A stretch of DNA of 32,000 nt from Candidatus Nanoarchaeia archaeon (GCA_028279745.1 JANQNC010000001.1:210001-242000), one strand, 5' to 3'. Counted from the stretch's first letter, positions 8,079 through 32,000 are shown. The notes: generated from the sequence alone by a model not told the origin. Program-made: numbers and translations.

Positions 8079-8243
8079 AGATAAGATAGTTCTAAATAAT
8101 TTTTTATTTTTAACCCATTCCACCGATAGATTTAAATATCATTTAATCAAAAAATAGCAGATAAACTTGTTATAATAGTGGGGGATTTATGATAGATGCG
8201 ACAAATACGCAGAGCTATTTGATTATAACACACGGAGGAAAAA

Positions 8244-8498: not shown

Positions 8499-8583
8499 TA
8501 AAAACATTTAAATATTCAATTTTTTTCTTTATTTCTATAATTATTTTATCAGTAATATTAAGTTACTAAAGGAGGAATCATAA

Positions 8584-9240
8584 ATGGCAAAAATAAAGAA
8601 AGGAGATTTTGTAGAACTAGACTACGATGGATACGTAAAAGAAGAAAACATAATGTTTGACACAACAGACGAGAAAAAGGCTAAGGAGAATAACATATAC
8701 AGTCAAAAATCAGAATATGGCAAGATAATCATATGCGTGGGAGAACACCAAATCCTAAAAGGCATAGACAAAACACTAGAAGGAAAAGAACCCGGAGAGT
8801 ATGAGATTGAGTTAACTCCAGAAGACGCATTTGGAAAAAAAGATTCAAAATTGCTGAAGCTGATACCTTCTTCTGCTTTCAAAAAAGCAGATATACAACC
8901 GATGGTGGGATTACAGGTTAACATAGACAACGCAATAGGAACAATAAGATCAGTAAACGGCGGAAGAATAATCGTGGATTTTAACCACCCACTAAGCGGA
9001 AAAGACATCAAATACTCATTAAAAATTGACAGGATAGTAGAAGATGACGTTGAAAAAGTAAATTCTATCATAAGTTTGGCGCTAGGAGTCAAGGATGCAA
9101 AAACTGAAATAAAAGACGGCAAAGCTGCTGTGAAGTTTAACAATGCATCAAAACTACCTGACGAGGTAAAAACAAAATTACCTGAAAAAATAACCGAATT
9201 AGTTGAAAACGTCAAAGAAGTCGAATTTAGCGAGCCATAA
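8584..9240 (+). CDS. FKBP-type peptidyl-prolyl cis-trans isomerase (archaeal long type with insert-in-flap and C-terminal domain)
   Basis: SD AAGGAGGA. MAKIKKGDFVELDYDGYVKE...FDTT, ILKGIDKTLEGKEPGE, GGRIIVDFNHPLSGKDIKYSLKI. These are typical SlyD/archaeal FKBP signatures. Confidence 0.85.
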   Translation: MAKIKKGDFVELDYDGYVKEENIMFDTTDEKKAKENNIYSQKSEYGKIIICVGEHQILKGIDKTLEGKEPGEYEIELTPEDAFGKKDSKLLKLIPSSAFKKADIQPMVGLQVNIDNAIGTIRSVNGGRIIVDFNHPLSGKDIKYSLKIDRIVEDDVEKVNSIISLALGVKDAKTEIKDGKAAVKFNNASKLPDEVKTKLPEKITELVENVKEVEFSEP

Positions 9241-9340
9241 AGTAAGATTTATATATGAGTGTGCCTACTTTAGAATAAATACTACTTTGAACTACATCAA
9301 AGTTAAACATAATCTCTAAATTGCGGGGTGTTGGGGAAAA

Positions 9341-10555
9341 TTGACAGACTTTATAGAAGATATTAAGAGAGAAGTAAATGAAGAGCTAGATAAGGCAACA
9401 GAAGAAGAAAAAGAAGTTATTGAAGAACAGAAAGAAGAAGAATTCTCATACAACGATGAAGAATCATTTTCAGATGTGCCAGAACAACCAAAAAGATCTC
9501 TAAAAAGTAATGATGTTGATAACGAATTAGCAAGCCTATTGTCAAAACATAAAGCAACAATCAAAGTAATAGGTTGTGGCGGTGGCGGAAACAACACAAT
9601 CAACAGAATAACTGAAGTTGGCGTGTTTGGAGCAGAAACAATAGCCATAAACACGGACGCACAAGATCTGTTGATTGCAACTGCAGATAAAAAAATTCTA
9701 ATCGGAAGAGATATTTCTAAAGGACTTGGAGCAGGATCCATACCAAAAATAGGAGAAGATGCAGCAAAAGAGTCAGAAAATGAAATTAAAGAATCACTAA
9801 AAGGAGCAGACCTAGTATTCGTAACATGTGGACTTGGAGGCGGAACCGGAACAGGTTCAGCACCAGTTGTAGCAGAGATAGCAAAAAAGTTAGGCGCTTT
9901 AACTGTAGGGATAGTAACTGTGCCATTCGCAATGGAAGGCAACAGAAGATACGAGAACGCTATTTACGGGTTAGAAAAACTAGAAAAAGTATTGGATACC
10001 ATGATCTTGATAACCAACGATAAATTACTGGAATTAGCACCAGATCTACCACTACAAACCTCATTCAAAGTAGCAGACGAGATATTAACAAACGCTGTAA
10101 AAGGCATTGCAGAACTAGTAACCAAGACAGGACTAGTGAACCTAGATTTTGCAGATATCAAGACAGTAATGGGCAACGGAGGTGTTGCGCTGATAGGAGT
10201 TGGAGAGTCAGACTCAGAATCAAGCGCGATGGAAGCTGTTGAAAAGGCTTTGAATAATCCTCTTCTTGAAGTAGACATAGAAGGCTCAAACGGAGCTTTG
10301 ATCAACGTAGCAGGAGGGCCAGATATGACCCTAGAAGAGGCAAAGATAATAGTAGAAACTGTTACAGAAAAGATGGACCAGAATGCAAGGGTAATATGGG
10401 GAGCCCAAATAGAGGACGATTTAGAAGGTATTATAAAGGTAATGTTAATTATCACAGGCGTAAGGAGCTCACAGATATTCGGGCCCGACAAAACCGTAAG
10501 TGATAAAAAGAGAAGCGAAATTGAGGATGAATTAGGAATCAAGTTCGTTGATTAA
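9341..10555 (+). CDS. ftsZ: cell division GTPase FtsZ
   Basis: [17 protein letters not shown] and the tubulin signature [22 protein letters not shown] start, since there is no in-frame ATG before the GTPase core. About 65 aa of acidic N-terminal extension. Confidence 0.95.
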
Positions 10556-14173: not shown

Positions 14174-14971
14174 ATGTTTAAGAATATGAGTAATAGGGTG
14201 CTGTTTGAGAAACCAAGACTAAAAACGCTGAATGGTCTAGGGTACAAATGTTTTGACTTACATTATCACACTAGATATTCTGATGGAAAGAATGGAGTGA
14301 AAATAGCGATAAAGAAAGCAAACCGGCTTAGATTTGGGTTTGCAGTCACAGACCATGATGAGATAAGGGGTGCAGTAGAAGCACACAGAAGAAAAGAATG
14401 CACAATCATACCTGGGATAGAGGTAACATCAAGAGAGCTGTATGATTTATTAGTTTATTTCTATGATGTCAATGATCTAATAGAATTTTATGTAAAACAC
14501 ATCAGGAAAGAGAAACAAAATCCCGGACTACTAAGAATCAAAAGAACAAAACTAAGTTTTGTAAGTGTGTTAGAAGCAGCAGAAGACTACAATTGTTTAA
14601 TCGCTCCCGCACACCCATTCGCAATGAGACCAAAAACATCTTATGAAATATTTGAAGAACACCCAAGCTTACTGAAAAAATTTGATGCAATAGAGACAAT
14701 AAACGGCACGATGACCCAAAACCAAAACATAAAATGTTTCAACTGGGCGCAAAAACTTGACAAACCTATGATCGGAGGGAGCGATGCACACGCAGTTGCA
14801 CAGCTAGGTTCAATAATAAACGCTGTAAAAGAAGATTCAGTTGAAGGTGTATTGAATGCAATAAAGAAAGAGAAACACATATTAATCGGAAAAGGGTTAA
14901 ATGTAGCATCACTATATTATCATAATCTAGAGGTAATAAGAAAAAACATATTTAACGAGATAAAACGATGA
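14174..14971 (+). CDS. PHP-domain metal-dependent phosphoesterase
   Basis: Canonical PHP motifs DLHYHTRYSDG, AVTDHD, APAHPF, GGSDAHA. Confidence 0.8.
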   Translation: MFKNMSNRVLFEKPRLKTLNGLGYKCFDLHYHTRYSDGKNGVKIAIKKANRLRFGFAVTDHDEIRGAVEAHRRKECTIIPGIEVTSRELYDLLVYFYDVNDLIEFYVKHIRKEKQNPGLLRIKRTKLSFVSVLEAAEDYNCLIAPAHPFAMRPKTSYEIFEEHPSLLKKFDAIETINGTMTQNQNIKCFNWAQKLDKPMIGGSDAHAVAQLGSIINAVKEDSVEGVLNAIKKEKHILIGKGLNVASLYYHNLEVIRKNIFNEIKR

Positions 14972-18100: not shown

Positions 18101-18601
18101 TTATTGTCGTGCTCGCATTATGCCAAAGCCTGCAACACCAACAATAACAACAACAGCAATCAATAAACCATCCCCCAGCTCAGGGATTTCCTCCATTGGC
18201 TCTCCACCACATTCTGGAATCGGATCATAATAACAGCCCCCATCACAGCTATCTACAGTGCATGGATCGTCATCATCACACCAGTCTAAAATTTCATCAT
18301 ATGGACACTCTGCATTGCCTGAGTTCATAAAACAACCATGTTGGTATTCAACGTAAACCCACGTATCATCCCTAAACTCACAAACACTATAATCTTGTGT
18401 AGTACAATCGTGTATTTGAGTTGGTTCACCTTCAACACAGCTACCTTGACTACATGTAAAATTGCCTTCAACAATATCATCTGGACCTAAACAAAAGAAA
18501 GACTCAAGATCATCACAATCCTCATCTTGTTCACACTCGTGCTGTGCAAAAACAGCACCGACCACAAAAAGTAATAGTAAACTTAAAATTAGTTTCTTCA
18601 T
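18101..18601 (-). CDS. exported Cys-rich acidic protein with C-terminal TM anchor
   Basis: Signal peptide MKKLILSLLLLFVVGAVFAQ. Many Cys in a D/E-rich ectodomain. C-terminus is EEIPELG + DGLLIAVVVIVGVAGFGI + MRARQ. Confidence 0.7.
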   Translation of the reverse strand: MKKLILSLLLLFVVGAVFAQHECEQDEDCDDLESFFCLGPDDIVEGNFTCSQGSCVEGEPTQIHDCTTQDYSVCEFRDDTWVYVEYQHGCFMNSGNAECPYDEILDWCDDDDPCTVDSCDGGCYYDPIPECGGEPMEEIPELGDGLLIAVVVIVGVAGFGIMRARQ

Positions 18602-19223: not shown

Positions 19224-20210
19224 CTATATATGCTTAAGGAACCAGTTATCAAAGTCTATGGCTAAACTCACCACCCCATCACTAGACACTTTTTTGTCTT
19301 GCAGAGCAAGGATCTGATCATTTATTCTTTTAACATCATAATCATTCCCAAGATATGTTGGAAGAATCTCTTTCAGTCTGTGAAGAACAGTTACAACCTT
19401 CTTATTCTTTTTAGTAAACTTCAGATCTTTAATCATCCGCACATACTTCCCAACATCATAAGCAGTTCTATCATCTACTTTTTTAGCAAGATTATCATCC
19501 AAAGGTTTTATCTTTGAAAAAATCTTAGCTTTGTCTTTAATAAAACCAAGGTCAAGAACCGGTTCTTTTAATCTTAAAAAGCTGACATGTCTTGAAAGAG
19601 TATCAACATTATCATAAAAACAACCTTTTTGTGAGAATCTAAAAGGCATATACTGAAAGTCATAAAGATACTGGATCAGATCTCCAAGATTATAGGTGTG
19701 TAATGTTGCTCCATTAATCTTCTTTTTCTCAACATAGCTACACCTGTACTTTCTCACTTCATCATCATCTACAATATTATACTGTTGATGGTTAATATCA
19801 AATTTATGATAGGTAGTATCAATCAATACATATCCATCTTTGTAATCAACAGCAGAACAAGCATGATTTACTTTGTCTCCTTCGTTGTCTTTTGATACAA
19901 ATGCAACCCTACTGTTAAAACCCAAAAATCTTGCCATAGTTACAAATAAAAAAGACTGTTCAATACAGTTACCTTTTTTCTCATTGAAAACATCCAAAGA
20001 ATTTCTTTGTCTTGGGTAATCAGAACTGTAAGCGATATTATCCTGAAAATAGTCAAATATTTTTTTCAGTTTATCGTGTAATTGGCCTTTGTTCATACTT
20101 TCTGCAATAGGGATAAGCTTATAGGGCATTATGAAAGGATCTGCATACTTTTTTTCAACTAAAGAGATAACATAGTCATTTTTCATACTACCATATATGC
20201 ATCTTATCAT
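19224..20210 (-). CDS. transglutaminase-like cysteine protease-fold protein with unknown C-terminal half
   Basis: Cys-His-Asp core in family order and spacing: KKGNCIEQSFLFVTMARFLG, VNHACSAV, GYVLIDTT. Confidence 0.75.
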   Translation of the reverse strand: MIRCIYGSMKNDYVISLVEKKYADPFIMPYKLIPIAESMNKGQLHDKLKKIFDYFQDNIAYSSDYPRQRNSLDVFNEKKGNCIEQSFLFVTMARFLGFNSRVAFVSKDNEGDKVNHACSAVDYKDGYVLIDTTYHKFDINHQQYNIVDDDEVRKYRCSYVEKKKINGATLHTYNLGDLIQYLYDFQYMPFRFSQKGCFYDNVDTLSRHVSFLRLKEPVLDLGFIKDKAKIFSKIKPLDDNLAKKVDDRTAYDVGKYVRMIKDLKFTKKNKKVVTVLHRLKEILPTYLGNDYDVKRINDQILALQDKKVSSDGVVSLAIDFDNWFLKHI

Positions 20211-20261: not shown

Positions 20262-22514
20262 TTAAGCAACAGCCCTGTATTCATCCTTAACCTTTATCCC
20301 TTTTGTAAGGATCTCTTTCAAGTTCTTAAGAGCTGATACTTCTGAAGGTTTTAATTTATAGTAATGATTTTCATTCTTTATCAATCTGTCAAGGTGTGCA
20401 TTTAATCTCTTGCTTTGTATATCCACAATATGTCTATTGTCATAAACTTTTTTGTATGCAAAGTCAAACTTCTCTTCAGTAAATGAGAAATTTGCAGTTG
20501 TTCTTCTCTCAAGAAGGGCATAATAACTATGTGTATTTTTCAACTGGTTCCAAGCACCAAGGCTTTGATAATAAAGAAGAACTTCAATCGTAAGCAGATC
20601 TTTCTGCTTCATAACATCTGCAACATAAGCTTCAGGCAACTCTTCTAGACTTTTTATTGTCTTAGAGTAATCAACATCATATTTGCTTTCAGGCAAATAA
20701 CCATTATATTTCTGACCGTTAAGAGTTTTATTAGTGTTAAACTCGACACGCGCATTGTGTCTTCTTATCACTGAACCTTCAAATCTCTTATCTATACTGT
20801 CAAAGAAGTCATTTCCGATATGGTCATATAGATAACTTAAGTTGTCAAGCACCCATTTGTCCCATATAACTCCATCCAGATCATACTGCAACATAACTTC
20901 TATAAACTCGTCGGGTTCCCCATTTTTACCCTCACACTTTATTTTATGCCTTACTAAGTGTTCAGTGTTTTCGATATCTGCATGACAATGTGCTACAGAC
21001 TCACTGCTTCTATAACAGTTAAGTACTGGTTTGAGTGATTCTTCAAGTCTTCTTTGAGTTTCTGTGTCAATCTCAAAATTACCTATGATATTGCTCTCTT
21101 CTTTTATCAGGTTGATCTTTTGTGCCATGAGCAGGTCACCACGACCAATCTCTTCTTTTCTAACCTTATCATCAAAGTATTTCCATAAGGCTAATCCAAT
21201 TACTGAATTATTAATCCTCTCTTGGTGATATCCTACAGGATTATGTTCTTCACTGTCAGAGCTGGCAGGTCGTACGATACCACACCATTTGCCACCCACA
21301 TCTCTAATGTCCTCCATGAAGAAACTTCCTGTTTCACTGTTTATATCAATTGTCTGATCACACAACCCCATCGATTCTTGCTTTTGTTCTGTCAGAATAT
21401 CAACTATCTCATCTAACATGCCTTTTCTCTTTTGCTCAGTAAGATTATCAACAATCTCTTCCAATACACTATCCCTATCAGGTAAATTAAAATCTTCCCC
21501 TTCTTTTTCTAACAGCTCTTTCTTTTTTCTATTCAAGTACTCTTCTACCATCTCTTTCTTATTTCTGCTTATATGATTTTTTAGCATGCCTATCAGTCTA
21601 GGAGCATTTTCCTCTTTTGCTTGTTTTAGACTATCATTAAAATAAAACATCTCAATATCGTTTGTTGGAGCCGGCAAGTTTTCCATGTAAATGTTGTCTT
21701 TCTCTGTGAAAACAGGCTTAACAACTCTAGCTTTTCTGCCGAAAAGGAACTTCATCTGTGCAGTCTCGTAATCACAACGGTCGTCCCTCTTCTTTCTCCT
21801 TCCACTAATATCATTAAATCCTGCGCTTTTAGGTATTATGTACTGCTTACGGAAGTAAGGTGTTGTGACGATGGTCTTATCTGAATCTGGATTTTTGACT
21901 TGAACCAGGATCTTAGAAAGCTTAGTGTATAAATGCCTTAAACCTTTATCATTAACAACATACTCAAATACTTTTATTTCAGCACCCGGTTTTGCTATCC
22001 CTTCATTCTCAAGCTGTGCACGATATGTTGTATTAACAAAGCTAAGAAACTTTTCATATTTTTCTCCCTTAAGTTCTATTTTTCTTTTCTCGTCCTTTTT
22101 AATCTCTTTAAAGTGTTCTACTGCCCCTTCAAGTGTCTTTGGCAAGACATCAGTTAGCTTCTCTTTGTCAAGCAGGTCATAAGCTCCCAACTTTATTGCT
22201 TCCTCTTTCCCCATCCCCCCTTTAAGTTTATCAGAGGCGGTCATCAAAATAACAGGTGTATTTATGTTTTTCTTACTGGTATATCTTAAGATATCAAAAC
22301 CACCTTGCTTTGGCATGACAACGTCACAAAGGATAACATCTACAGCTCTCTTATTTATCTGTTCGATTACCTTCTTTCCACTGCTGACTGGAATTATGTT
22401 ATAGTTAACATCAGAATTACTCTCTATTATTTGCGTAGCTAACTTAACCATATCAGGCTGATCATCAGCCACAATTATGTTGACAATATCTTTCTTCTCC
22501 ATTTTTTTAACCAT
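20262..22514 (-). CDS. response-regulator receiver domain fused to a large module ending in a PI3/PI4-kinase-like (type II PI4K-like) domain
   Basis: REC: IIVADDQPD, VDVILCDVVMPKQGG, PVILMTASD, AIKLGAYDLLDK. C-terminal blocks resemble type II PI4K as I recall it: TGSFFMED...GIVRPASSDSEEHNP...GYHQE (compare SGSYFVKD...AVFKPKNEEPYGHLNP...GYLSE), ADIENTEHLV (compare DRGNDNWLI) and YDLDGV (compare IDNGLAFP). The kinase assignment is an inference. Confidence 0.65.
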   Translation of the reverse strand: MVKKMEKKDIVNIIVADDQPDMVKLATQIIESNSDVNYNIIPVSSGKKVIEQINKRAVDVILCDVVMPKQGGFDILRYTSKKNINTPVILMTASDKLKGGMGKEEAIKLGAYDLLDKEKLTDVLPKTLEGAVEHFKEIKKDEKRKIELKGEKYEKFLSFVNTTYRAQLENEGIAKPGAEIKVFEYVVNDKGLRHLYTKLSKILVQVKNPDSDKTIVTTPYFRKQYIIPKSAGFNDISGRRKKRDDRCDYETAQMKFLFGRKARVVKPVFTEKDNIYMENLPAPTNDIEMFYFNDSLKQAKEENAPRLIGMLKNHISRNKKEMVEEYLNRKKKELLEKEGEDFNLPDRDSVLEEIVDNLTEQKRKGMLDEIVDILTEQKQESMGLCDQTIDINSETGSFFMEDIRDVGGKWCGIVRPASSDSEEHNPVGYHQERINNSVIGLALWKYFDDKVRKEEIGRGDLLMAQKINLIKEESNIIGNFEIDTETQRRLEESLKPVLNCYRSSESVAHCHADIENTEHLVRHKIKCEGKNGEPDEFIEVMLQYDLDGVIWDKWVLDNLSYLYDHIGNDFFDSIDKRFEGSVIRRHNARVEFNTNKTLNGQKYNGYLPESKYDVDYSKTIKSLEELPEAYVADVMKQKDLLTIEVLLYYQSLGAWNQLKNTHSYYALLERRTTANFSFTEEKFDFAYKKVYDNRHIVDIQSKRLNAHLDRLIKNENHYYKLKPSEVSALKNLKEILTKGIKVKDEYRAVA

Positions 22515-23451
22515 AACTTATCCTTGTAAGAGAGTGAACTGAAGACATAAGTGCTCTAAGCTGTCCCACCAGATCATAAATTATGCCCTGCTTTTCCTCG
22601 CTTTCGAAGAATGCGTCAATAGCCTTCATCACATCTTTCCTTTCATCAGAAACTGTGTAAGCTAGCATCTTGTCCTTTCCATAATAAGCTTTCATAGTGT
22701 CAAGATAGTTCTTCTCTATCTTTGAATAGATCGAGATTAAATCATCCTTGCCCCGCTTCTTAAGATCAAGCAGAGGGAAAATTCTTGAAAGACGCTTTAT
22801 AGAATCTGCGGTCTTTTCCAGATTGAATGCGAAGTTCCATGAACTCATCAATGCAACAAGATCCATCTTCATATTTTTCATGACAGACGGGTCAGTCATT
22901 GCAGACTTAACTGCTCGGAACACCAAGAATACTAATCTGTTAACATCATCATCTCTTTGGTCAAGATTTTCTGTTTCTTTACCTAAAAAAGAATTTTTAG
23001 TGTCAATAACCATCGACCTTATGATTATGTCTATTTTTCTAACAAGATTCACAATAGAAATATCTTTCATGTTAAGGAAATCTTTTGCAATTATCTTATC
23101 TCCACTTTCCTGCATTATTTCCAATGCAACTAAACCGTGAAGAATGTGTCTGATGCCTTTAGCTTTTTTCTTTATATCAGAACCAGAAATATAAAGTACA
23201 TTTACATTGTTAATGTATGATGAAATGATCTCTCTTTTTAGAAATTCTAAACTTTTTCCATCAGTGTTAATCTTTATCTCAACAGGATCTTTTTCAACTT
23301 TTGCAGAAGCAGGCGATAGTGTAAGTTTGTTTAACTCTTCAGAAACATAGATGATGTCGCCTTTGTTAAGGCTGTGCTTATCCATCCAGTCCCTTGGCAA
23401 AGAAAGGACGTAGGAAGATTTTCCAAATGCTATAATCTTTCTAGTTTCCAT
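22507..23451 (-). CDS. AbrB/SpoVT-domain + PhoU-domain regulator (archaeal phosphate-uptake-regulator type)
   Basis: N-terminus KIIAFGKSSYVLSLPRDWMDKHSLNKGDIIYV has a swapped-hairpin AbrB pattern. Two PhoU-like helical repeats follow (DDDVNRLVFLVFR...). Its stop overlaps the next gene's ATG by 8 nt. Confidence 0.8.
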   Translation of the reverse strand: METRKIIAFGKSSYVLSLPRDWMDKHSLNKGDIIYVSEELNKLTLSPASAKVEKDPVEIKINTDGKSLEFLKREIISSYINNVNVLYISGSDIKKKAKGIRHILHGLVALEIMQESGDKIIAKDFLNMKDISIVNLVRKIDIIIRSMVIDTKNSFLGKETENLDQRDDDVNRLVFLVFRAVKSAMTDPSVMKNMKMDLVALMSSWNFAFNLEKTADSIKRLSRIFPLLDLKKRGKDDLISIYSKIEKNYLDTMKAYYGKDKMLAYTVSDERKDVMKAIDAFFESEEKQGIIYDLVGQLRALMSSVHSLTRISYG

Positions 23452-23650
23452 ATTTTCACCATTTCTTTAGTTCGATTAATCACCCCGCAGGTAAGCAACG
23501 ACACCTTATTCTAACTATAAGTGTAAAATGTCTATTTACTCATCCCCCAAACATATACCCCCTATGCAGTATATAAAGAATAGAGAGTAACTATATATAT
23601 TTAAATCTTACTATACTATAGTAGAATACATATAATCAGGGGTGGTTGCT

Positions 23651-23800
23651 ATGAAAGATATATTTTATGAAATTGAGAAAGATCTGCTTCCAGACCGGTT
23701 AAAACAGGTGAAAACAGACGAATGGGACACTGAGAAAGGTATTGATGAAATAGATGAATGGGACACATCATGGGTAAAGGAAACCGATACCGGAAGCTAA
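23651..23800 (+). CDS. candidate small acidic Trp-rich protein (49 aa)
   Basis: Below the track cutoff. SD GGGGTGG lies 6 nt before the ATG. MKDIFYEIEKDLLPDRLKQVKTDEWDTEKGIDEIDEWDTSWVKETDTGS. It appears paralogous to the next ORF. Confidence 0.4.
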   Translation: MKDIFYEIEKDLLPDRLKQVKTDEWDTEKGIDEIDEWDTSWVKETDTGS

Positions 23801-23878
23801 AAACATATAGTGTATTTGTTGTATATAAGATAGACATATAAGCAAAGTTAGCTTATAAACTGATAGGGGGTGCATATT

Positions 23879-24034
23879 ATGAAAGATAAATTGTTCAAGA
23901 GATTGGATGAGGAAAATATCTTTTTAGATGATATGGACATATATACAGAAGAGGCCCGAGAAAAAGAAGTTGAAAATGATGAACTAGACTGCTGGGAAGC
24001 TGCCTGGATGCAGGGCTACGAAGAAGCAAGATAA
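23879..24034 (+). CDS. candidate small acidic Trp-rich protein (51 aa)
   Basis: SD GGGGGTG lies 6 nt before the ATG. MKDKLFKRLDEENIFLDDMDIYTEEAREKEVENDELDCWEAAWMQGYEEAR. A strong hairpin plus T-tract follows. Confidence 0.45.
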   Translation: MKDKLFKRLDEENIFLDDMDIYTEEAREKEVENDELDCWEAAWMQGYEEAR

Positions 24035-24060
24035 AACTCATTCCTCATAACTGCTGAGTC

Positions 24061-24100
24061 GGCTATCCTCTCGCGAGGATAGCCCCTCCGTGTTTTATTT
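24061..24100 (+). terminator. stem-loop plus T-tract terminator-like element
   Basis: Perfect 10-bp stem GGCTATCCTC / GAGGATAGCC with loop TCGC (24061-24084), then CCTCCGTGTTTTATTT. Confidence 0.55.
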
Positions 24101-24209
24101 AATATAGAGTGGAAAATGATTTTTTTAGATATATTAATTATTTTCTATATGGAAAATAAATGGGCTATGACAAGCTTTAAATAAGCAAATTCTCAGGAAT
24201 GGCTTTTAA

Positions 24210-24998
24210 ATGGAAAAAGTAATTTTTACAGATTTAGATGGCACATTGTTGGATCACGATACTTATTCTTATGCAGCAGCAAAAGATGCTTTGAAGATAG
24301 TGAAAAAGCAGAAAATTCCTTTGGTGTTTTGTACAAGTAAAACAAGAGCAGAAATTGAGCATTACAGAAAAAAGTTTGGCAACAAAGATCCATTCATAGT
24401 GGAAGATGGCGGAGCAATATTTATCCCAACAGGATACTTTGATTTTGAATTTAAGAATGATGGCAAAGTTGGCAAATACTATGTGATCGAGTTAGGGACT
24501 CACTATGACAGATTGTTAAGAGTTGCAGAAGCGATGGAGAAAAAGTTTAGTCTAATAAAAACATTTCACGATATGACTGTAAAAGAGACAGCAAAAGATA
24601 CAGGGATGACTGTTGCGCAATCAAGAAGAGCCAAAAAAAGAGAATATGATGTTGTGTTTAAAATTTTGAAAAAGGACGAGGTTGAGAAAGAGATTCTTAG
24701 AGAGATCAAGAAACACAAACTGAATTATGTTATTGGCGGAAGATACTACCATATTGTCGGAGATAATGACAAAGGAAAAGCTGTAAAAATATTACTTAAA
24801 TTATTTAGAAAGAAATTTGGAAAAGTAAAATCAATAGGATTGGGAGATTCACAAAATGATTTCTCAATGTTAGAAAGCGTTACAGTGCCTTACTTAGTCA
24901 AGAAAAAATCCGGAAGGTATTCTTCCAAAAAATACAATCACGCAGATGGAATAGGACCAAAAGGCTGGAATAGAGCAGTCAAAAAGGAGTTGGAATAA
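24210..24998 (+). CDS. HAD-IIB phosphatase of the mannosyl-3-phosphoglycerate phosphatase (MPGP/YedP) family
   Basis: VIFTDLDGTLLDHDTYSY, PLVFCTSKTRAEIE, IVEDGGAIF, GLGDSQND. A TATA (TTTAAATA) ends 27 nt upstream, which suggests a near-leaderless mRNA. Confidence 0.8.
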   Translation: MEKVIFTDLDGTLLDHDTYSYAAAKDALKIVKKQKIPLVFCTSKTRAEIEHYRKKFGNKDPFIVEDGGAIFIPTGYFDFEFKNDGKVGKYYVIELGTHYDRLLRVAEAMEKKFSLIKTFHDMTVKETAKDTGMTVAQSRRAKKREYDVVFKILKKDEVEKEILREIKKHKLNYVIGGRYYHIVGDNDKGKAVKILLKLFRKKFGKVKSIGLGDSQNDFSMLESVTVPYLVKKKSGRYSSKKYNHADGIGPKGWNRAVKKELE

Positions 24999-26242
24999 TG
25001 ATCGATAAGAAAAAAGCAGATGCAATCTACAGAAAAAGCATTCAAGTTCTGAAAACAGTGCAGTTACCAAACGGAGGATGTTTAGCGACACCACCAGGAG
25101 CAAGATACCCTTACGTTTATCCTAGAGATCACGCAATAATAATTTTAGGCATGATATCTGCAGGGATGATGAAAGAAGCAAAGAAAGGAATTGATTTCGT
25201 GATGAAATCAGAACTAGAATCAGGAGCATTTCCACAAAGACTTGATAAAAAAGGAAACGATGCATCATACAAACCGATACAGATAGACGGAACAGGATTA
25301 ATTCTATATGCATATGCAGAATATGTTAAAGCAACAAATGACACCAAGTTTGCAGAGAAACACTGGGACAGAGCAAAAAGAGCAGTACACTATATTGTAG
25401 AAAACTTCTATGGCGAAAAACAATTGATCTTCACACCAAACTCAATACACGAGTTCCCACCAACAGAAGAAGGATTAGAGATCTGGGCTAATTGTACTTG
25501 TCATGCGGCACTTGAAAAAATGTACGAGCTTGGTGAATTATTAAATCATAAACACAACGAATGGAAGGAATTAGCCATAACAGTAAAAGAAGGAATAATG
25601 AGATATATGTGGAACGATAGGATTGGAACTTTTATCAAAAATGTAAGAATAAAAGAATCAAGTTCTGCTTTAGTTGACACAGATGCATCAGAATATGCAG
25701 TTGCAGATTATGGAGTTTTACCTGATGACGATCCTCGGGTTAGGTCCACAGTTAAAGATATTGAAAAAGATCTGTGGAACAAAGACTTAGGAGGATTATG
25801 CAGATATCCAAAATATGAAGGAAGAAATAATGGTGGATGGGGCCCGTGGCCGCACTTTACATTAATGGTTGCAAGACATTTTATTCGGTTGAGTGATAAG
25901 AAACGAGCTGACAAGTACATGAAATGGGTGATAGACCACACTTATGGCAATCTGATTCCAGAACATTTAGCGACAAAAAAAGAATTCGAAGAATATGTAA
26001 CAGACTTTACACAAGCTGGTTTGTTAAGGAAGGATAGGATGATAATGATAGAGAATGTAAGAAAACATCCTATGTTTAAGAAAAAAGGAGTTGCTTATGT
26101 GATAATACCTTTAGCATGGCCACATGCAGAATTCATCAGAACGTATAATTTGTATAAAGAAGCTTTCATCAACGGGAAGAAAGTTAAGAAGAAGGCAGTT
26201 AAGAAAAAAGCTAAAAAGAAAGTAACTAAAAGAAAAAAATAG
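24998..26242 (+). CDS. GH15-like (alpha/alpha)6-barrel glycoside hydrolase, catalytic domain only, with poly-Lys C-terminal tail
   Basis: YPYVYPRDHAIIILG, IQIDGTGLILYAY, GGLCRYPKYEGRNNGGWGPWPHFTLMVARH. C-terminal KKVKKKAVKKKAKKKVTKRKK. Start overlaps the upstream stop (TAATG). Confidence 0.75.
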   Translation: MIDKKKADAIYRKSIQVLKTVQLPNGGCLATPPGARYPYVYPRDHAIIILGMISAGMMKEAKKGIDFVMKSELESGAFPQRLDKKGNDASYKPIQIDGTGLILYAYAEYVKATNDTKFAEKHWDRAKRAVHYIVENFYGEKQLIFTPNSIHEFPPTEEGLEIWANCTCHAALEKMYELGELLNHKHNEWKELAITVKEGIMRYMWNDRIGTFIKNVRIKESSSALVDTDASEYAVADYGVLPDDDPRVRSTVKDIEKDLWNKDLGGLCRYPKYEGRNNGGWGPWPHFTLMVARHFIRLSDKKRADKYMKWVIDHTYGNLIPEHLATKKEFEEYVTDFTQAGLLRKDRMIMIENVRKHPMFKKKGVAYVIIPLAWPHAEFIRTYNLYKEAFINGKKVKKKAVKKKAKKKVTKRKK

Positions 26243-26254
26243 ATTGATGACAAA

Positions 26255-27157
26255 ATGGAATTCAAGAAAAGAAAAGAACCTATACTGACACCAGATCCTT
26301 CTCTAAAACATGAAAGGTTTTGCGTGTATAACCCTTGTGCAGTAAAACATAAAGGTAAAATTTACATGATCTATAGAGCAGAAGGGAAATATGATGAATA
26401 TGTTTCTACATTATGTCTTGCTACAAGTACAGATGGAATCAACTTTAGAAAGTATAAGAAAAACCCAATCATAAAACCCACAAGAAAAGAAGAAAAAAGA
26501 GGTTGTGAAGATCCAAGAATCACAAAAATAGGAGATACTTTCTACTTAACGTATACTGCGTTTGAAAAAGCTAACCCTGGAGAGAAAGGGAAAATAAATT
26601 TATCACTAGCAACATCAAAAGATCTAATCCATTGGAAGAAAAAAGGAATTATAATCAAGAATTACAAATCAGGAATTATCCTGCCTGAGAAAGTTAATGA
26701 TGAGTACCTGATGTTCATTGGAGATACAAACATCAAAGTGGCAAGATCAAAGGATTTATTGAGGTGGAAGTTAGACAAAAAACCCTTGATGAGTGTTCGC
26801 TCAAAAAAGTTTGATTCTAAATTAGTTGAAACAGGACCTCCACTGATTTATGACAATAACAAAATACTATTCATTTACAATTCAGCAGATAAGTTGATCA
26901 GGTATCATGTTGGATATTGTGTTCTGGATAGGCTTAACCCCTGCAAGATATTTAAGAGGTGCTCTGAACCAATATTAAGTCCAACAGAACAATTTGAATT
27001 GTATGGAAAAGTAAATAATGTAGTGTTTGCAGAAGGACTAGTAGAACATAAAGGAAAATATTTCTTGTATCATGGTGGCGCAGACAAATGTGTTGGTGTT
27101 GCAATTGCAAACAAAAAAGACGTATTTAAACTAATCAGAAATTCTCAATCTTACTAA
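26255..27157 (+). CDS. GH130 family glycoside phosphorylase/hydrolase (DUF377)
   Basis: FCVYNPCAVKHKGKIYMIYRAEG, LATSTDGINF, GCEDPRITKIGDTFYLTYTAF, YHGGADKCVGVA. Confidence 0.85.
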   Translation: MEFKKRKEPILTPDPSLKHERFCVYNPCAVKHKGKIYMIYRAEGKYDEYVSTLCLATSTDGINFRKYKKNPIIKPTRKEEKRGCEDPRITKIGDTFYLTYTAFEKANPGEKGKINLSLATSKDLIHWKKKGIIIKNYKSGIILPEKVNDEYLMFIGDTNIKVARSKDLLRWKLDKKPLMSVRSKKFDSKLVETGPPLIYDNNKILFIYNSADKLIRYHVGYCVLDRLNPCKIFKRCSEPILSPTEQFELYGKVNNVVFAEGLVEHKGKYFLYHGGADKCVGVAIANKKDVFKLIRNSQSY

Positions 27158-27442: not shown

Positions 27443-27856
27443 ATGAACAAAAACTATTTAAATAGGAAAACTAGGTTATATATTATGGTATACACACCAC
27501 AAAAGCATCCGAAGCAAGCATTGATACTGATAACAGTTATTGCATCAGCAGGAATACTGGGCGGGTTATACATTTCAGAATACTTCTTAGGAATTGCACT
27601 GATGTTCTGGATGCAGTATACAGCAGTGTTAAGTTATTTACAATTTAAACACAAACACGAAAAAATAAAAGACGGAATAAATGTTTATTTACTAAATCCT
27701 ATTTTGAGATTCTTTATCTTTGAACTAATCGCATTTTGGGGACTAGCAATGTTGATATGGTGGGAAACAAAACTAGTCGGAATATTAGCACTGGCAGCAT
27801 GGTGGATATTCTCATTGAACTTCTATTTCTATTACAAAAAGAGAACTAGTAAGTAA
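27443..27856 (+). CDS. small integral membrane protein (about 4 TM helices)
   Basis: Hydrophobic segments ALILITVIASAGILGGLYI, FLGIALMFWMQYTAVL, FFIFELIAFWGLAMLIWW, GILALAAWWIFSLNFYF. Confidence 0.6.
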   Translation: MNKNYLNRKTRLYIMVYTPQKHPKQALILITVIASAGILGGLYISEYFLGIALMFWMQYTAVLSYLQFKHKHEKIKDGINVYLLNPILRFFIFELIAFWGLAMLIWWETKLVGILALAAWWIFSLNFYFYYKKRTSK

Positions 27857-28757
27857 GAGTCGCTTCTAAAAATCCGTAATCTTTTTTCATAGCAACACTT
27901 AGTGACTTATCCTCGTTAGTGTAACCAAGCCCACAAGTCAATACTTTTCTATTGCCCGCATTATCCATGCCTGCACGCAAAGCAAAGTTGCCAACTTTCT
28001 GTTCAATACCTGCTCTAATGCCTGGACTCCCCACTACAATAAAATTCAAATATTTAGCAAACGGTGCCAAAGCACTATAATAGCTAGAAGCTAATGTCAA
28101 GTCTCCTAGTTTATTATTTATTGTGTAACTAATGCCCGGTCTTAAATTTAATGCCTTAACATGCAAAGTAGACCAAGTCCTTGCCAAAACTCCCAGCCTT
28201 AATCTGTCATCATCAGTCAAAAGATTGCTTTTTTGGAATAAACCACTTAGCTCATAATCTAAAAACCTTCCTTGTCTTTTTTTATCATCACTCGTTTCAT
28301 GAATCCTCTTTGGAGTTATTGCTCCGCCAACTGAAAAGTTATCATTAATCTTGAAACCCGCAGCAATCTTTAACCAGTTCATAGTTTCGTTATAATCTGC
28401 ACCCTCTTTTATTATGTATTTTCTTCCTTCAAAAGAAAGATCCTTTATGTCTTGGCTAGAGTTCATCAACTGAAGACCCAAACCTAACCTGCCCAGTAGT
28501 GGAGTAGCAAAAGATAAAGTGTTATCATATCTATATGATTCACAATTACCTACAAGTTTTGTAAAAGTAAGAGCAGGTCTTTTTAGAAAAGGTATCTTTG
28601 CTTGATTCCAGTAGGTCGAGTTAGCATCATCACTTATAGTTATGCCCGCGTGACCCATAGCCATCTGCTTAGCACCAGTGCAAGCTTGATTCACAGATGT
28701 GTGTAAAAGTAAAGCAATCAGTGCAGTTGACAATGTTCGTTTTAGTTTTTTGATCAT
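27846..28757 (-). CDS. exported bacterial outer-membrane-like beta-barrel protein (FadL/TraF/PorV-like N-terminal motif)
   Basis: Signal peptide MIKKLKRTLSTALIALLLHTSVNQA. Then GAKQMAMGHAGITISDDANSTYWNQAKIPF, which resembles the G.R..GMGGA..A..D....NPA motif of these barrels. About 14 alternating amphipathic strands (RLGLGLQLMN, WLKIAAGFKIN, NFALRAGMDN, LTCGLGYTN...). C-terminus is LEATLTY, ending in an aromatic residue. Confidence 0.65.
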   Translation of the reverse strand: MIKKLKRTLSTALIALLLHTSVNQACTGAKQMAMGHAGITISDDANSTYWNQAKIPFLKRPALTFTKLVGNCESYRYDNTLSFATPLLGRLGLGLQLMNSSQDIKDLSFEGRKYIIKEGADYNETMNWLKIAAGFKINDNFSVGGAITPKRIHETSDDKKRQGRFLDYELSGLFQKSNLLTDDDRLRLGVLARTWSTLHVKALNLRPGISYTINNKLGDLTLASSYYSALAPFAKYLNFIVVGSPGIRAGIEQKVGNFALRAGMDNAGNRKVLTCGLGYTNEDKSLSVAMKKDYGFLEATLTY

Positions 28758-29854
28758 CTTTTTCTTACCATATATACTTTATCAGGAAGGTTTCCAAATT
28801 CAAACTTCTCTCTAGATGCTTTCATCTCGCAATGGGATTCTGTAGGCACTATGTATATTTGTACTCCCCCCATACTTGGCAATGGACGCATCACTTGAAC
28901 GATGTCTTTAGGCAGTACAAATCTGCTGTTCATCTTATCTATCAGAACAGGATTATACTCTCCGGTTATAGAACCTGTAAACTTATCTCTAGAAAACATT
29001 TCATGATACCATTTCATCCTGTTAAATGAATCATTAAGTGTTACAAATCTTTTGTCAGTTATCTTAATGCCTTTTTCTTCTCCAAAATAGAAATATTGGT
29101 CTCTCCATCTTAAAGAATTAAATAATCCTTCAGCAAAAGCTTCACAAAGATCTTCAGTCTCCTCATCGGTTCTTGTAACAATTGTTGTGTTCTTGTTTGC
29201 TAGTTCGCTAAAACCGCCAGTTCTGCAGCCGTCAACAATCATTACATTGCCTTTTGTTTTGAGATGTTTAAAGTGGTAATTAAATCCTTTAGGATTCCAA
29301 ACAATCAGGTCTTCTGGATCTCCGCTTGATCCCAGAGTAAGTATGTTGCTTGTTTTTTTCTTTTCATTATAATATCCATGGCCTGTGATGTACAAAAAGA
29401 ATTCGCTGTTAGAATCTAGTTTTTTCGCACCATCCAATAAGTATCTTAGATTTTTTGAAGTTGGCGGTCCGATTATACGGGGGACTGTCAAAACAGGATA
29501 CTTATGCATAACATTGTACACGATTGATGTTAAATCTCCCCCCGTCTCTGCTTTCTTTCCTTTCGCGACTTTTTCTATGTTTTCTTCATCTTGGTAGTTT
29601 GCATAAGGAACGCTAAGAACTTTTATGTCATTCTCATTAAACCCTATCCACCTGAAAAAATTGTATGAACGCAACACATTATCCATGTGATGATCTTCTT
29701 CAGCATGATTAACAATAACAGCCAAACCTTTCCTGCTTCCTGTGTTGTACTTTGAGTTTCTTGATGTTGCTTGGTATAAACCAGGAGCACATGATGAAAC
29801 TAAAGCTGCTAAACCTGCGCCGCCTGCTGTTGTTAGAAAGTTTCTTCTGTTCAT
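28754..29854 (-). CDS. Tat-signal lipoprotein, clan CD (legumain/gingipain/caspase-like) cysteine peptidase
   Basis: Twin-arginine signal MNRRNFLTTAGGAGLAALVSSC with a lipobox-like Cys. Catalytic dyad context FFLYITGHGYY and VMIVDGCRTGGF in clan CD order. ATGA overlap with the barrel gene. Confidence 0.7.
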   Translation of the reverse strand: MNRRNFLTTAGGAGLAALVSSCAPGLYQATSRNSKYNTGSRKGLAVIVNHAEEDHHMDNVLRSYNFFRWIGFNENDIKVLSVPYANYQDEENIEKVAKGKKAETGGDLTSIVYNVMHKYPVLTVPRIIGPPTSKNLRYLLDGAKKLDSNSEFFLYITGHGYYNEKKKTSNILTLGSSGDPEDLIVWNPKGFNYHFKHLKTKGNVMIVDGCRTGGFSELANKNTTIVTRTDEETEDLCEAFAEGLFNSLRWRDQYFYFGEEKGIKITDKRFVTLNDSFNRMKWYHEMFSRDKFTGSITGEYNPVLIDKMNSRFVLPKDIVQVMRPLPSMGGVQIYIVPTESHCEMKASREKFEFGNLPDKVYMVRKR

Positions 29855-29856
29855 TT

Positions 29857-30372
29857 CTATACCTCGATATTTAATTCATAACCCAACCTATTTGCGATTA
29901 GTAAAACAGCCTGGTCAACTGCTTTACTTCTTGAAGCATATCCTGGGAAACCTTTAACAACTTCCAGTTTTGGGTTATCTAACCCACATAATAATCTGGT
30001 TTCTGGCGTTATTAACATCCCAATGTATGTTTTGTTTTCTTTGAAGTGTTCTTTGAATCCTTCAAGATCTGCTTCTGAAAAGTTTCTTGCGTAATATTCT
30101 CCGAACTTTTCTATAGTTCCTTTTGAATGTGTGTGGAATTTAACAAAGTTATATTCTGGATTTTTTTCAAAAAATTCATTGACTATGGCCATTCTTTCAG
30201 GAGTTGAGCTTACGTGTCCTTCTGTTCCTTTTCCTGTGATAAATATTGTTTCAATAGGACAGTATTCTTCTTTGGGTCTGTATAATAAAACACCATTCAC
30301 TTCAGATTTTAGATTAGCAAGGCTAACCAATCTCTGTTCTAGTTCTTTTGGCAGTAATACTGTTCGTTTCAT
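29857..30372 (-). CDS. JAB/MPN-like (JAMM variant) protein
   Basis: Upstream Glu (SEVNGVLLY), FHTHS, and SEAD. These match the E...HxH...SxxD elements of JAMM, but the spacer between HxH and SxxD is longer than canonical. Confidence 0.5.
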   Translation of the reverse strand: MKRTVLLPKELEQRLVSLANLKSEVNGVLLYRPKEEYCPIETIFITGKGTEGHVSSTPERMAIVNEFFEKNPEYNFVKFHTHSKGTIEKFGEYYARNFSEADLEGFKEHFKENKTYIGMLITPETRLLCGLDNPKLEVVKGFPGYASRSKAVDQAVLLIANRLGYELNIEV

Positions 30373-30920
30373 CTTTCTACAGCTCCTTCTTTAACCATAC
30401 TGGAACCTTTCATATCAATAGCATCTAAAGGTATTAACAGTTCAGGAATCTCATATATCTCTCCTGACTTTTTGTTTTCCCAAGATGACCTGCAGTTCAC
30501 TTTGCCAGTTGGCTTGTATTCCTGAAGAAAGTTTTCAAGAATGTGAGAATTATTCCAATATTCAGGAATCTTTTCTGCTCTTCTTAGGCTTACAATCTCT
30601 CCAGCAAGCAGGTGGGGTGCTACAACACATCTTTTCGGGTTAACTGAAATTTCAGCCCAGTAAGATTTTTCTAACTCGCCCTGGCTTGGTTTACTTAAGT
30701 AAGCATAAACTGAATTAAGTATTGGGTTTCCATTCCAAATCTCCCCGTATTTTTCTGGCGCGGCTTGACCAAACTTTTCTAGAATCGCTAGCCCCAGTTT
30801 AGCACCTGCTTTCATTGAATCAGTTCCGTTTCTTAGCCATTCCTCAAGGCCTTCACGATAACTTCTGAACTCCAATCTAGGAAAATTTCCCATGTTTCTG
30901 TAAACTTTAACTTGAGTCAT
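30369..30920 (-). CDS. hypothetical protein (183 aa) of the operon
   Basis: The track start is GTG at 30929. The ATG at 30920 forms an ATGA overlap with the upstream stop and has GGGTGG 6 nt upstream, so it is preferred. No motif recognised. Two Cys (NPKRCVVAPH, VNCRSSW). Confidence 0.6.
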   Translation of the reverse strand: MTQVKVYRNMGNFPRLEFRSYREGLEEWLRNGTDSMKAGAKLGLAILEKFGQAAPEKYGEIWNGNPILNSVYAYLSKPSQGELEKSYWAEISVNPKRCVVAPHLLAGEIVSLRRAEKIPEYWNNSHILENFLQEYKPTGKVNCRSSWENKKSGEIYEIPELLIPLDAIDMKGSSMVKEGAVER

Positions 30921-31384
30921 CTTTTCCACCCTTGTTTAATTAAAGATTTGATGTATACGTTTAAGGTGTATATCCTCCTGTCGTCTTCAAAATCCATCTC
31001 TTCAAAAGTAAAGAGAGTATTATGACGGTTAAGAACCCCCACATATATTTCCTTAAGTGTGCAGTCATTATAAGGCCATCTAGGCATCTCTTCGTTCTGT
31101 TTAAGTTTTAATAATTCATCCAAATCCTCTTGAGTGTAAAGTATAATTGAATCAATACTTTTTCCCCTTAAAGAAAAGCCGATAGATCTTTGGTTGCCAT
31201 CCAACACAAGATATTTATCTGTCTGTTTATAGGGTGTTGTTACAATTGGAAAATTAAAAAATTTTAGGCATTCTTCAGGTGCAGAATCAGGGTTGTCGAT
31301 CATCTTGATAACATTATCTGAAGTATCGTTACGTATATCGTCAACAGGTACAAGCTGTTCTGCTATAAGTTTTGTTCTTTTCAT
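30917..31384 (-). CDS. ParB/sulfiredoxin-fold (ParB N-terminal domain-like) protein
   Basis: LVPVDDIRND ... FPIVTT ... YLVLDGNQRSIGF follows the ParB-N pattern (target-proximal Arg, then a hydrophobic-DGxxR box). 155 aa, with no HTH evident. Confidence 0.5.
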   Translation of the reverse strand: MKRTKLIAEQLVPVDDIRNDTSDNVIKMIDNPDSAPEECLKFFNFPIVTTPYKQTDKYLVLDGNQRSIGFSLRGKSIDSIILYTQEDLDELLKLKQNEEMPRWPYNDCTLKEIYVGVLNRHNTLFTFEEMDFEDDRRIYTLNVYIKSLIKQGWKR

Positions 31385-32000
31385 TTCCTTATCCTCACCA
31401 TCATTGCATAATCATAATCATCTAGGTTGATAAAAGAAAAATTCTCTTTAGGTACAAAGTTCAAATAATCAAGAACTCTCTGTTCTGTGTATCTTTGAGA
31501 CCACCAGCCTTCTTTTGTTGATGTAAAACAATCTTCTTTATTGGATGTTATTGTCCAACCAAAGTTTCTGTAAGTCTCTTCCTGTTTCTTTCTAGTTTCA
31601 TCAGTATCTATGTACATAGATCCGATTATTATCTCTCCATCAGGATTAAGCATCTCATGTGCTTGTTTGAATATACTTGTGAATTTGTCATTTTCTGTCA
31701 GATCATACCCCTGCGTGTAGTTTTTGATATCATACCCAAAAGGATAGAAGTTACCTGCAGTGAACCAGGTTGTGATTATCATATCATATTTTTTGTCTAA
31801 AGTTTTAAGATCTACAGCATCTAGTTGTGTTATGTTTACTTTACCTTCAAGACCCATATCACTGACAACTTCAGTTGAGATATCAATACAATCTTGAGCT
31901 ACATCTATTCCCTCATACGCTCTTATGGCATTTGATATATCTTGATGTTTGAATAATTCCTTAATCAGTCTTCCATCTCCAACACCAATATCAAGTATTG
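31381..32000 (-). CDS. class I SAM-dependent methyltransferase; 5' end beyond window
   Basis: The frame stays open upstream of the track Met to the window edge. My translation from 31998 is ILDIGVGDGRLIKELF (motif I), then YEGIDVAQ, LDAVDL, YDMIITTWF. No DPPY/NPPY or PCQ DNA-methyltransferase motif is visible. Confidence 0.8.
   Translation of the reverse strand, partial: ILDIGVGDGRLIKELFKHQDISNAIRAYEGIDVAQDCIDISTEVVSDMGLEGKVNITQLDAVDLKTLDKKYDMIITTWFTAGNFYPFGYDIKNYTQGYDLTENDKFTSIFKQAHEMLNPDGEIIIGSMYIDTDETRKKQEETYRNFGWTITSNKEDCFTSTKEGWWSQRYTEQRVLDYLNFVPKENFSFINLDDYDYAMMVRIRK

Follow-up and report, generated by a model that had tools for sequence, protein, structure and literature searches.

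Enzymatic response regulators such as CheB, PleD/WspR, RssB and the RsbU-type REC-PP2C proteins combine a receiver (REC) domain bearing the full D-D-D-T-K signature with an enzyme-like domain. For archaea, the available part of a two-component census (Galperin et al. 2018, PMC5847659) lists REC-KaiC, REC-glycosyltransferase, REC-PP2C, REC-thioredoxin reductase and REC-PPDK proteins, gives a narrow phyletic range as usual for such fusions, and counts one histidine kinase and one response regulator in four complete DPANN genomes together. A fusion of a receiver to an APH-type kinase is not listed in that part of the census, and a literature search for such a fusion, or for a pairing of AbrB-PhoU with an APH-like kinase, found no description. 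Here we analyse 32,000 nucleotides of DNA from Candidatus Nanoarchaeia archaeon (GCA_028279745.1 JANQNC010000001.1:210001-242000; this whole stretch is called the window), in which the gene for a 750-amino-acid (aa) protein directly follows the gene for a 314-aa AbrB-PhoU regulator. We read the 750-aa protein as an atypical response regulator whose output is a highly diverged domain of the APH/choline-kinase type followed by a helical subdomain, and we put the probability of this reading at roughly 0.65. With the enzymatic response regulators the protein shares a complete receiver joined to an enzyme-like domain, and with the archaeal ones a narrow phyletic range; it differs from them in its APH-type kinase-like output and its DPANN host, and no cognate histidine kinase was found nearby.

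Regulators in which AbrB and PhoU are fused occur commonly in archaea. In joining a SpoVT/AbrB domain to PhoU, the 314-aa protein resembles these archaeal AbrB-PhoU ('PhoU family') transcription factors; what sets it apart from the usual case is that here, and in many Woesearchaeota, an APH-like kinase gene systematically comes next. For comparison, a transcription-factor census of Pyrococcus furiosus counts 7 PhoU and 3 AbrB proteins (PMC6316755). On the kinase side, we set the window protein beside the APH/ChoK/EcKL group (PF01636, PF01633, PF02958), of which APH(3')-IIIa, methylthioribose (MTR) kinase and human choline kinase (ChoK-alpha) are examples. Its proposed order of N-lobe, hinge, helical region, HxD loop, 'IDxx' Asp and helical C-terminal subdomain is that of this group, it has in-register profile similarity to the group via Woesearchaeal APH-like proteins, and choline kinases are its top, though not significant, fold matches. 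Unlike the members of the group, it has no direct profile match, carries His for the Asn of HxDxxxxN and one extra residue in the loop, places ~230 residues instead of ~95 between hinge and catalytic loop, and has a C-terminal SLGxWNQ motif and a fused N-terminal receiver. The sequence-only reading had proposed another relationship, to type II phosphatidylinositol 4-kinases (PI4K; PI4K2A/B, PF00454). With these the likeness is limited to the general fold class and a catalytic Asp loop with a downstream metal-binding Asp; there is no sequence, profile or fold match, and the proposed N-lobe lies elsewhere than that reading placed it.

A canonical receiver in a tightly coupled gene pair

Both open reading frames (ORFs) of the pair are as the sequence-only reading gave them (Table 1). 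The 8-nucleotide (nt) overlap that it described (ATGGTTAA) exists when the 750-aa ORF is started at its first ATG; with the public gene call on the identical sequence, which starts four codons later (MEKKD, 746 aa), it becomes a 4-nt gap. Under either start the two genes are tightly coupled, and the coupling is real and conserved: an AbrB-PhoU orthologue lies directly upstream in every relative found. Because four independent homologues with conserved context exist, the possibility that the 750-aa ORF is spurious was rejected.

The N-terminal part of the 750-aa protein is a canonical receiver, as had been claimed. Its PF00072 match (E=2.1e-18) reaches 67 bits against a cut-off of 30.2, many receiver domains in the PDB match it with E-values down to 3e-10, and the sequence and family alignment contain the full set of signature residues, namely the acidic pair D17/D18, the phospho-acceptor D64, T91 and K117. 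Matches of the full-length protein to NCBIfam are confined to the receiver region, and there is no sequence match in Pfam, NCBIfam or the PDB over residues 146-750, which agrees with the earlier description of a receiver protein lacking a recognised output domain.

In the 314-aa protein, the SpoVT/AbrB match to PF04014 is above gathering (27.2 bits against a cut-off of 24.7), while the PhoU match (PF01895, residues 143-223) is borderline at 23.0 bits against 23.5 and the NCBIfam phoU_full match (residues 196-283) is weak. Orthologues clear the cut-offs more plainly, and an AbrB-PhoU paralogue at another locus (L009:5000-5941) passes both thresholds, with a PhoU E-value of 4e-9. The closest relatives of the gene come nearly all from Candidatus Woesearchaeota or Nanoarchaeota assemblies, which points to a DPANN host. 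Upstream of it in the window lies a 758-nt intergenic gap (23452-24209), followed by a divergent gene.

A small family with a conserved neighbourhood

Among 1.84 billion representative proteins, an exhaustive search with HMMER detected four relatives only: P0006 (677 aa, E=1e-40), P0007 (680 aa, E=2e-37), P0009 (688 aa, E=1e-4) and the 166-aa fragment P0008 (E=3.5e-7). P0006, P0007 and P0009 have the layout of the window protein, with a receiver-like N-terminus followed by the same C-terminal region. The fusion proteins are 20-30% identical to each other, and the proximal AbrB-PhoU copies are 50-55% identical to that of the window. In the contig of every relative, AbrB-PhoU is found directly upstream of the fusion gene, as one or two genes. 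In L002 and L003 the gene immediately downstream encodes a PHP-family phosphoesterase, and the downstream 376-aa ORF of L004 is a PHP homologue (blastp 6e-10).

Further searches added no members. No relatives turned up when genome and metagenome collections were scanned with the SLGxWNQ pattern, and a word-indexed search of 5.8 billion proteins with the full length, the C-terminal part and a profile yielded nothing beyond the protein itself or matches to the receiver alone. The latter search missed P0006, P0007 and P0009 even with these sequences in the query alignment; since known relatives went unreturned, its negative result on such lysine- and glutamate-rich, low-GC proteins does not amount to absence.

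Three side observations concern this neighbourhood. Tandem AbrB-PhoU paralogues, ~35% mutually identical, precede the kinase gene at L002:1110-2084, L004:2747-3712 and L009:5000-5944; the window has the proximal copy only and no tandem second copy. The window also encodes a 265-aa PHP + PHP_C protein at 14174-14971 (+), 5 kb from the locus. We considered it as a displaced partner and rejected it as probably not one, its match to the operon PHPs covering only ~66 N-terminal residues (blastp 1.7e-6). Finally, a Transglut_core gene is found downstream in three of the four family loci (the window, L003:3482-4450 and L004, where two copies occupy 8038-8886 and 8883-9716), with the S17e gene next after it in the window and L004; it is uncertain whether this gene is a member of the module or reflects mere synteny.

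APH-family kinases usually occupy the slot behind AbrB-PhoU

A search with an alignment of AbrB-PhoU orthologues against species-representative genomes and metagenomes gave 49 loci. The receiver-kinase-like family itself was absent from all of them; the next same-strand gene is usually an APH-family kinase, and we refer to these proteins as group gB. They match PF01636 above gathering in L007, L010, L012, L021 and L024 and more weakly in L009 and L026. A profile built from 11 gB proteins matches the PDB entries 3csv (5e-10) and 2olc, an MTR kinase (1e-9), followed by APH(3'), APH(2'') and eukaryotic-type protein kinases. With at least 1.2 kb of downstream sequence available at 43 loci, a same-strand ORF starts within 400 nt at 36 of these; 25 of the 36 ORFs have a hidden Markov model (HMM) match to the window family, to gB or to the group gA described below, and 28 do when carriers of a Brenner-like motif are included, counts that take in redundant contigs and HMM training sequences. 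In plain-kinase modules of some Woesearchaeota loci other partners of the phosphoesterase type were also seen, namely a SMODS-associated NUDIX protein (L012:8448-9122) or a HAD hydrolase (L009), and then aIF5B.

Group gA comprises three longer proteins in the same slot (L015, 689 aa; L030, 701 aa; L011, 784 aa). Their N-terminus is a degenerate receiver, as judged from an hhalign P of 2e-4 against the family REC and a weak Pfam REC match in L030, and the only PDB match of the gA profile is a response regulator. Further on they carry HGDMRLQN or HNDMRLQN (QGDMRLQH in L011) and then DFDLKG, and each gA gene is followed by a PHP gene. The window protein thus resembles gA in its slot behind AbrB-PhoU, its receiver-like N-terminus and a C-lobe that is co-linear to the C-terminus, and both gA and the relatives of the window protein have PHP downstream. 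It differs in that gA has canonical HGDxxxxN and DFD motifs and a receiver without the acidic pocket, whereas the receiver of the window protein is fully canonical, and no similarity was detected between the N-lobes of the two.

The His that the window protein has in place of the Mg-binding Asn has counterparts among the APH-like kinases behind AbrB-PhoU: L010:6956-8281 (HSDLHLGH), L014:6969-8378 and L011:6972-9326 (QGDMRLQH). Close relatives of these His-variant kinases keep the Asn. Since the change recurs in the Pfam-positive L010 and L014 and in L011 beside canonical relatives, a tolerated variant rather than decay is suggested, and from the sequences Asn to His may be a clade-specific catalytic variant. 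In one further kinase of the slot (L007:2898-4001), Ala replaces the catalytic Asp.

In-register profile similarity to the slot kinases

Profile-profile comparisons were made with hhalign, and for six of the eight comparisons column-shuffled nulls that keep composition were computed. The family aligns with gA with a score of 39.2 (P=6e-4, 218 columns) against a null of 15.9+-2.6 (maximum 23.4) and a score of 20.5 for the reversed profile; a separate run gave P=0.009 and co-linearity over 276 columns to the C-terminus. In the register of this alignment HCHADIENTEH falls on INHGDMRLQN, YDLDG on FDLKG and DNLSYLYDH on DIMELLTEH. The C-terminal tail compared by itself with the gA tail scores 27.5 (null 11.1+-1.8).

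Similarity to gB was found at both the catalytic loop and the N-lobe. For the loop the score is 25.6 (null 12.3+-1.4), with the catalytic loop placed on IIHSDLHLGH and the metal-binding motif on IDYGG. For the N-lobe, the segment from alphaC through beta4 and beta5 to the hinge aligns with the 11 gB sequences at P=0.0013, and the N-lobe sub-alignment scores 21.3 (null 10.8+-1.7); here DYETAQM...VVKPVFTEKDNIYMENLPAP lies on the matching gB segment (alphaC, beta4, beta5 and hinge). The core of the family and gA combined scores 32.6 against gB (P=1e-3, z ~16; null 9.6+-1.4). Against four classical APH enzymes, whose sequences were confirmed as Pfam APH, the same combined core scores 18.4 (P=0.08; null 10.5+-1.7), which is weak, yet the same residues are paired. 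The family N-lobe scores at null level against APH. Taken through gA and gB, the in-register similarity to verified APH members is weak but consistent. As far as these alignments go, the nearest verifiable relatives of the protein are phosphotransferases of the APH/choline-kinase type and not lipid kinases.

Proposed domain map of the kinase-like region

A single-sequence AlphaFold2 (AF2) model was unusable (pLDDT 37); with a five-sequence alignment the model reached pLDDT 62 and pTM 0.58. The kinase-like part of this model runs from a strand-turn-strand through more strands and one helix to a pair of strands with the hinge; helices come next, then short strands surrounding the catalytic motifs, and finally a C-terminal region that is helical. 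This order of elements fits a bilobal kinase. Choline kinases take ranks 1-4, 6, 8 and 11-15 of the Foldseek search with this model; an ethanolamine kinase stands lower, and several N-lobes of eukaryotic-type protein kinases are also present. As no match is significant, we regard this ranking as supportive only.

The proposed N-lobe consists of beta1, a conserved turn, beta2, beta3, alphaC, beta4-beta5 and the hinge (IYMENLPAP). The turn is a conserved [KR]-G-L-R at 192-195, with an Asp before it in three of the four members, and the candidate alphaC Glu, E250, falls on a conserved Glu column of gB. The candidate beta3 reads h-h-K in three relatives, but the window protein has K223, shifted by 3-4 residues. 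The helical insertion behind the hinge is largely specific to the window protein. In the C-lobe, the catalytic-loop candidate aligns with HGDMRLQN (L015), HSDLHLGH (L010) and HGDACLPN (NPTII); its Asp (D513) is conserved in all four family members, and P0009 has HNDTFPFH, with canonical spacing. The candidate metal-binding Asp follows the catalytic Asp at the expected spacing of ~18-32 residues, in a [YI]D[LMF]D motif that is conserved in all four members and aligns with FDLKG (gA), IDYGG (gB) and IDCG (APH). Invariant residues of the C-terminal subdomain are E644, S651-L-G653, N656-Q657, Y664 and R670.

This map reassigns parts of the sequence-only reading, the quoted peptides of which are all present (GSFFMED at 396, GIVRPASSDSEEHNP at 412, GYHQE at 428, ADIENTEHLV at 512 and YDLDGV at 544). 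ADIENTEHLV and YDLDGV do fall on two sites of verified kinases, the catalytic loop and the metal-binding Asp respectively, whereas GSFFMED...GIVRPASS...GYHQE forms no N-lobe or glycine loop: these blocks come after the hinge, which aligns at ~263-289, in a mainly helical region of the model. The middle part, which had been left unassigned, probably contains the kinase N-lobe at ~176-285, judging from the order of elements in the AF2 model and the gB alignment. A kinase fold for the C-terminal part is supported indirectly, by slot, profiles and fold ranking, but not membership of the PI4K family. The short tandem repeat is present as a local 16-residue duplication inside the insertion, its copies being identical at 10 of 15 aa and 33 of 45 nt and the relatives carrying a single copy, but it is too weak for TRF, which called no tandem repeat in the region.

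Table 1. Coordinates of the gene pair, its proposed domains and motifs, and the adjacent downstream gene, in window positions
Feature	Position	Strand	Basis or remark
AbrB-PhoU regulator gene, 314 aa	22507..23451	-	first gene of the pair; ORF, Pfam, orthologues
SpoVT/AbrB-type swapped-hairpin DNA-binding domain, residues 10-49 of the 314-aa protein	23305..23424	-	PF04014, E=3.9e-6
PhoU-like helical region, residues ~143-283 of the 314-aa protein	22603..23025	-	PF01895, weak NCBIfam phoU_full
Receiver-kinase-like fusion gene, 750 aa	20262..22514	-	alternative start at 22502 gives 746 aa
REC domain, residues 13-124 of the 750-aa protein	22143..22478	-	PF00072 Response_reg
Proposed kinase N-lobe, residues ~176-285	21660..21989	-	AF2 secondary structure, gB alignment
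Helical insertion after the hinge, residues ~286-395	21330..21659	-	gaps opposite in relatives; long helices in AF2 model
Local peptide duplication EEIVDNLTEQKRKGM / DEIVDILTEQKQESM, residues 352-382	21369..21461	-	copies at 352-366 and 368-382
Proposed kinase C-lobe core, residues ~396-600	20715..21329	-	hhalign against gA and gB
Catalytic-loop candidate H511-A-D513-I-E-N-T-E-H519	20958..20984	-	Brenner-type HxD
Y544-D545-L-D547-G, candidate metal-binding Asp (DFG / 'IDxx' equivalent)	20871..20885	-	D557-N-L helix follows
C-terminal helical subdomain, residues 601-750	20265..20714	-	most conserved part of the family
Transglutaminase-like gene	19224..20210	-	conserved downstream neighbour; Pfam Transglut_core E=2e-13

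Weighing the alternatives

A number of observations weigh against a kinase-type output under receiver control. In direct searches, residues 146-750 and their two halves had no Pfam match at E<=10, PF00454 included, and the region likewise had no direct match to PF01636, PF01633 or PF02958 at that threshold; phmmer and a family-profile hmmsearch with the same residues gave 0 matches in the PDB at E<=10. The profiles are all thin (Neff ~2), with hhalign probabilities of 5-29% and P from 1e-2 to 6e-4, the family alone had no hhalign match to the four classical APH enzymes, and its N-lobe showed no similarity to the gA N-lobe, with a score at null level. No Foldseek match is significant (best E=0.35, TM ~0.2-0.34), and AF2 confidence is low exactly around the catalytic loop. 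As to the residues themselves, the window protein has no beta3 Lys that can be assigned confidently, the H511-H519 loop is a non-canonical Brenner motif with His at the usual Mg-binding Asn position and one extra residue, and the residues that the family conserves best (SLGxWNQ) are not part of the kinase core. As to context, the window lacks a PHP gene directly downstream, no histidine kinase (HisKA or HATPase_c) was found among the scanned ORFs of the window, and the acceptor Asp is lost in P0006 and P0009.

The last two points bear on control rather than on fold. The receivers of the full-length relatives are variably degenerate, the acceptor position being Gly in P0006 and Gln in P0009; the window protein, unlike these, keeps the complete receiver site. 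Because P0006 and P0009 lack the acceptor Asp, phosphorylation of the receiver is not the general control of the family, and with no histidine kinase in the window as well, classical His-Asp phosphotransfer as a family-wide control is disfavoured.

Several of the same observations would also be expected if the protein had descended from APH enzymes but were now a dead pseudokinase or scaffold, with the actual function carried by the SLGxWNQ subdomain, for instance as a binding site for the AbrB-PhoU regulator or another partner. Besides the His at the Mg-binding position, the lengthened loop and the ambiguous beta3 Lys, this explanation would account for the family invariants clustering at 644-696 instead of at the catalytic motifs and for the degenerate receivers of several relatives. 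We nevertheless consider it unlikely, as both the HxD Asp and the [YI]D[LMF]D Asp are kept in all four members at 20-30% identity, Asn to His recurs in the Pfam-positive L010 and L014 and in L011, and the fused kinases are accompanied by the PHP gene, which is what reversible phosphorylation would predict.

Still less probable, in our estimate, is that residues 146-750 form a new non-kinase fold that resembles the slot kinases by chance and through shared AT-rich DPANN composition. A new fold would fit with the lack of any significant direct match to a known family or structure and with hhalign probabilities below 30%. It does not fit with the shuffled controls, which keep composition and score far lower (z ~9-16), nor with the alignment of alphaC-hinge, catalytic loop with DxD and C-terminal tail, in order and in register, with proteins from the same slot, and one fold class dominates the Foldseek ranking.

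That the C-terminal third is a type II PI4K-like lipid kinase under receiver control is very improbable: ADIENTEHLV and YDLDGV do align with kinase catalytic and metal-binding motifs, and PI3/PI4 kinases share the protein-kinase-like fold, which makes kinship at the superfamily level trivially true, but the PF00454 profile on the C-terminal part, PDB phmmer and the family profile all gave no match, the blocks from GSFFMED to GYHQE stand after the hinge in a helical region, and those relatives by position or profile that can be verified belong to the APH family. Structures of PI4K2A/B exist in the PDB, and no PI4K is among the 50 PDB matches listed by Foldseek for the AF2 model of moderate quality, in which choline kinases dominate and come out on top without being significant.

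Other genes in the window

The window is AT-rich (GC ~35%) and also encodes Alba, ribosomal protein S17e, FtsZ and Spt5/NusG; Rfam and tRNA scans of it gave no matches. The catalytic domain of a 222-aa protein encoded at 5450-6118 (-) is that of a class III adenylate/guanylate cyclase (Pfam Guanylate_cyc, E=5e-23). Class III cyclic-nucleotide cyclases are uncommon in archaea, and with this one a reduced, DPANN-type genome would have a further signalling gene. The gene at 18101-18601 (-) encodes a protein of 166 aa, rich in Cys and Asp, that has a signal-like segment at its N-terminus, a hydrophobic anchor at its C-terminus and a weak match to the Dicty_CTDC repeat; it is probably a surface protein. 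The divergent cluster at 24210-27157 (+) encodes a HAD phosphatase (Hydrolase_3/S6PP-like), a GH15-like glycoside hydrolase and a GH130 mannoside phosphorylase-like protein, and looks like a small pathway for a sugar or a compatible solute (mannosyl compound). Six packed or overlapping ORFs of 303, 366, 171, 186, 155 and 158 aa at 27846-31857 (-) form an unannotated operon; apart from a weak TAT-signal-like N-terminus on the 366-aa protein they match no Pfam family, and the genes are likewise called on the public contig L001.

A possible phospho-signalling module

Reading the 750-aa protein as a response regulator with an APH/choline-kinase-type output, we place its gene second in a module that is conserved in Woesearchaeota-type DPANN archaea, in which an AbrB-PhoU regulator is followed by an APH-like kinase. 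Most lineages have the kinase by itself; the window family and its sister group gA have it joined to a receiver or pseudo-receiver, and such fused genes are usually followed by one for a PHP-family phosphoesterase. Catalytic activity, control by the receiver, a substrate and a link to phosphate are what we infer from the architecture, from the PhoU-type regulator upstream and from the PHP gene that accompanies fused kinases. The state of the receiver could gate the ATP-dependent phosphorylation of a substrate, which might be a small molecule or else a protein, for example the AbrB-PhoU regulator encoded beside it. In the window protein, the phosphate on D64 might come from a small phospho-donor or from a histidine kinase encoded elsewhere; relatives without the acceptor Asp would depend on a phosphorylation-independent conformation of the receiver. 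The PHP enzyme of the relatives could reverse the modification.

A more specific version, which we hold to be rather unlikely, is a three-gene phospho-signalling cassette composed of AbrB-PhoU, a receiver-gated kinase of APH ancestry with His for the Mg-binding Asn, and PHP, in which the kinase would target the regulator or another protein and PHP would reset it. If true, such a cassette would combine His-Asp with kinase/phosphatase signalling in organisms where classical two-component systems are nearly absent.

New here are a response regulator whose highly diverged, kinase-type output had not been described, and its setting in an AbrB-PhoU/kinase/PHP module that had gone unremarked. With four representative clusters in 1.84 billion proteins, the general impact of the fusion is limited unless the module matters for the biology of the DPANN hosts. 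Receiver-enzyme fusions reveal which activities are under signal control, and few are found in archaea and especially in DPANN; in the present case standard annotation reads 'response regulator' alone because the kinase domain has diverged so far. The succession of AbrB-PhoU and an APH-like kinase, with PHP in the fused versions, may outweigh the single protein in importance, as it offers a testable module in organisms whose physiology is mostly inferred, and with it a lead on the signals to which the AbrB-PhoU proteins of archaea respond.

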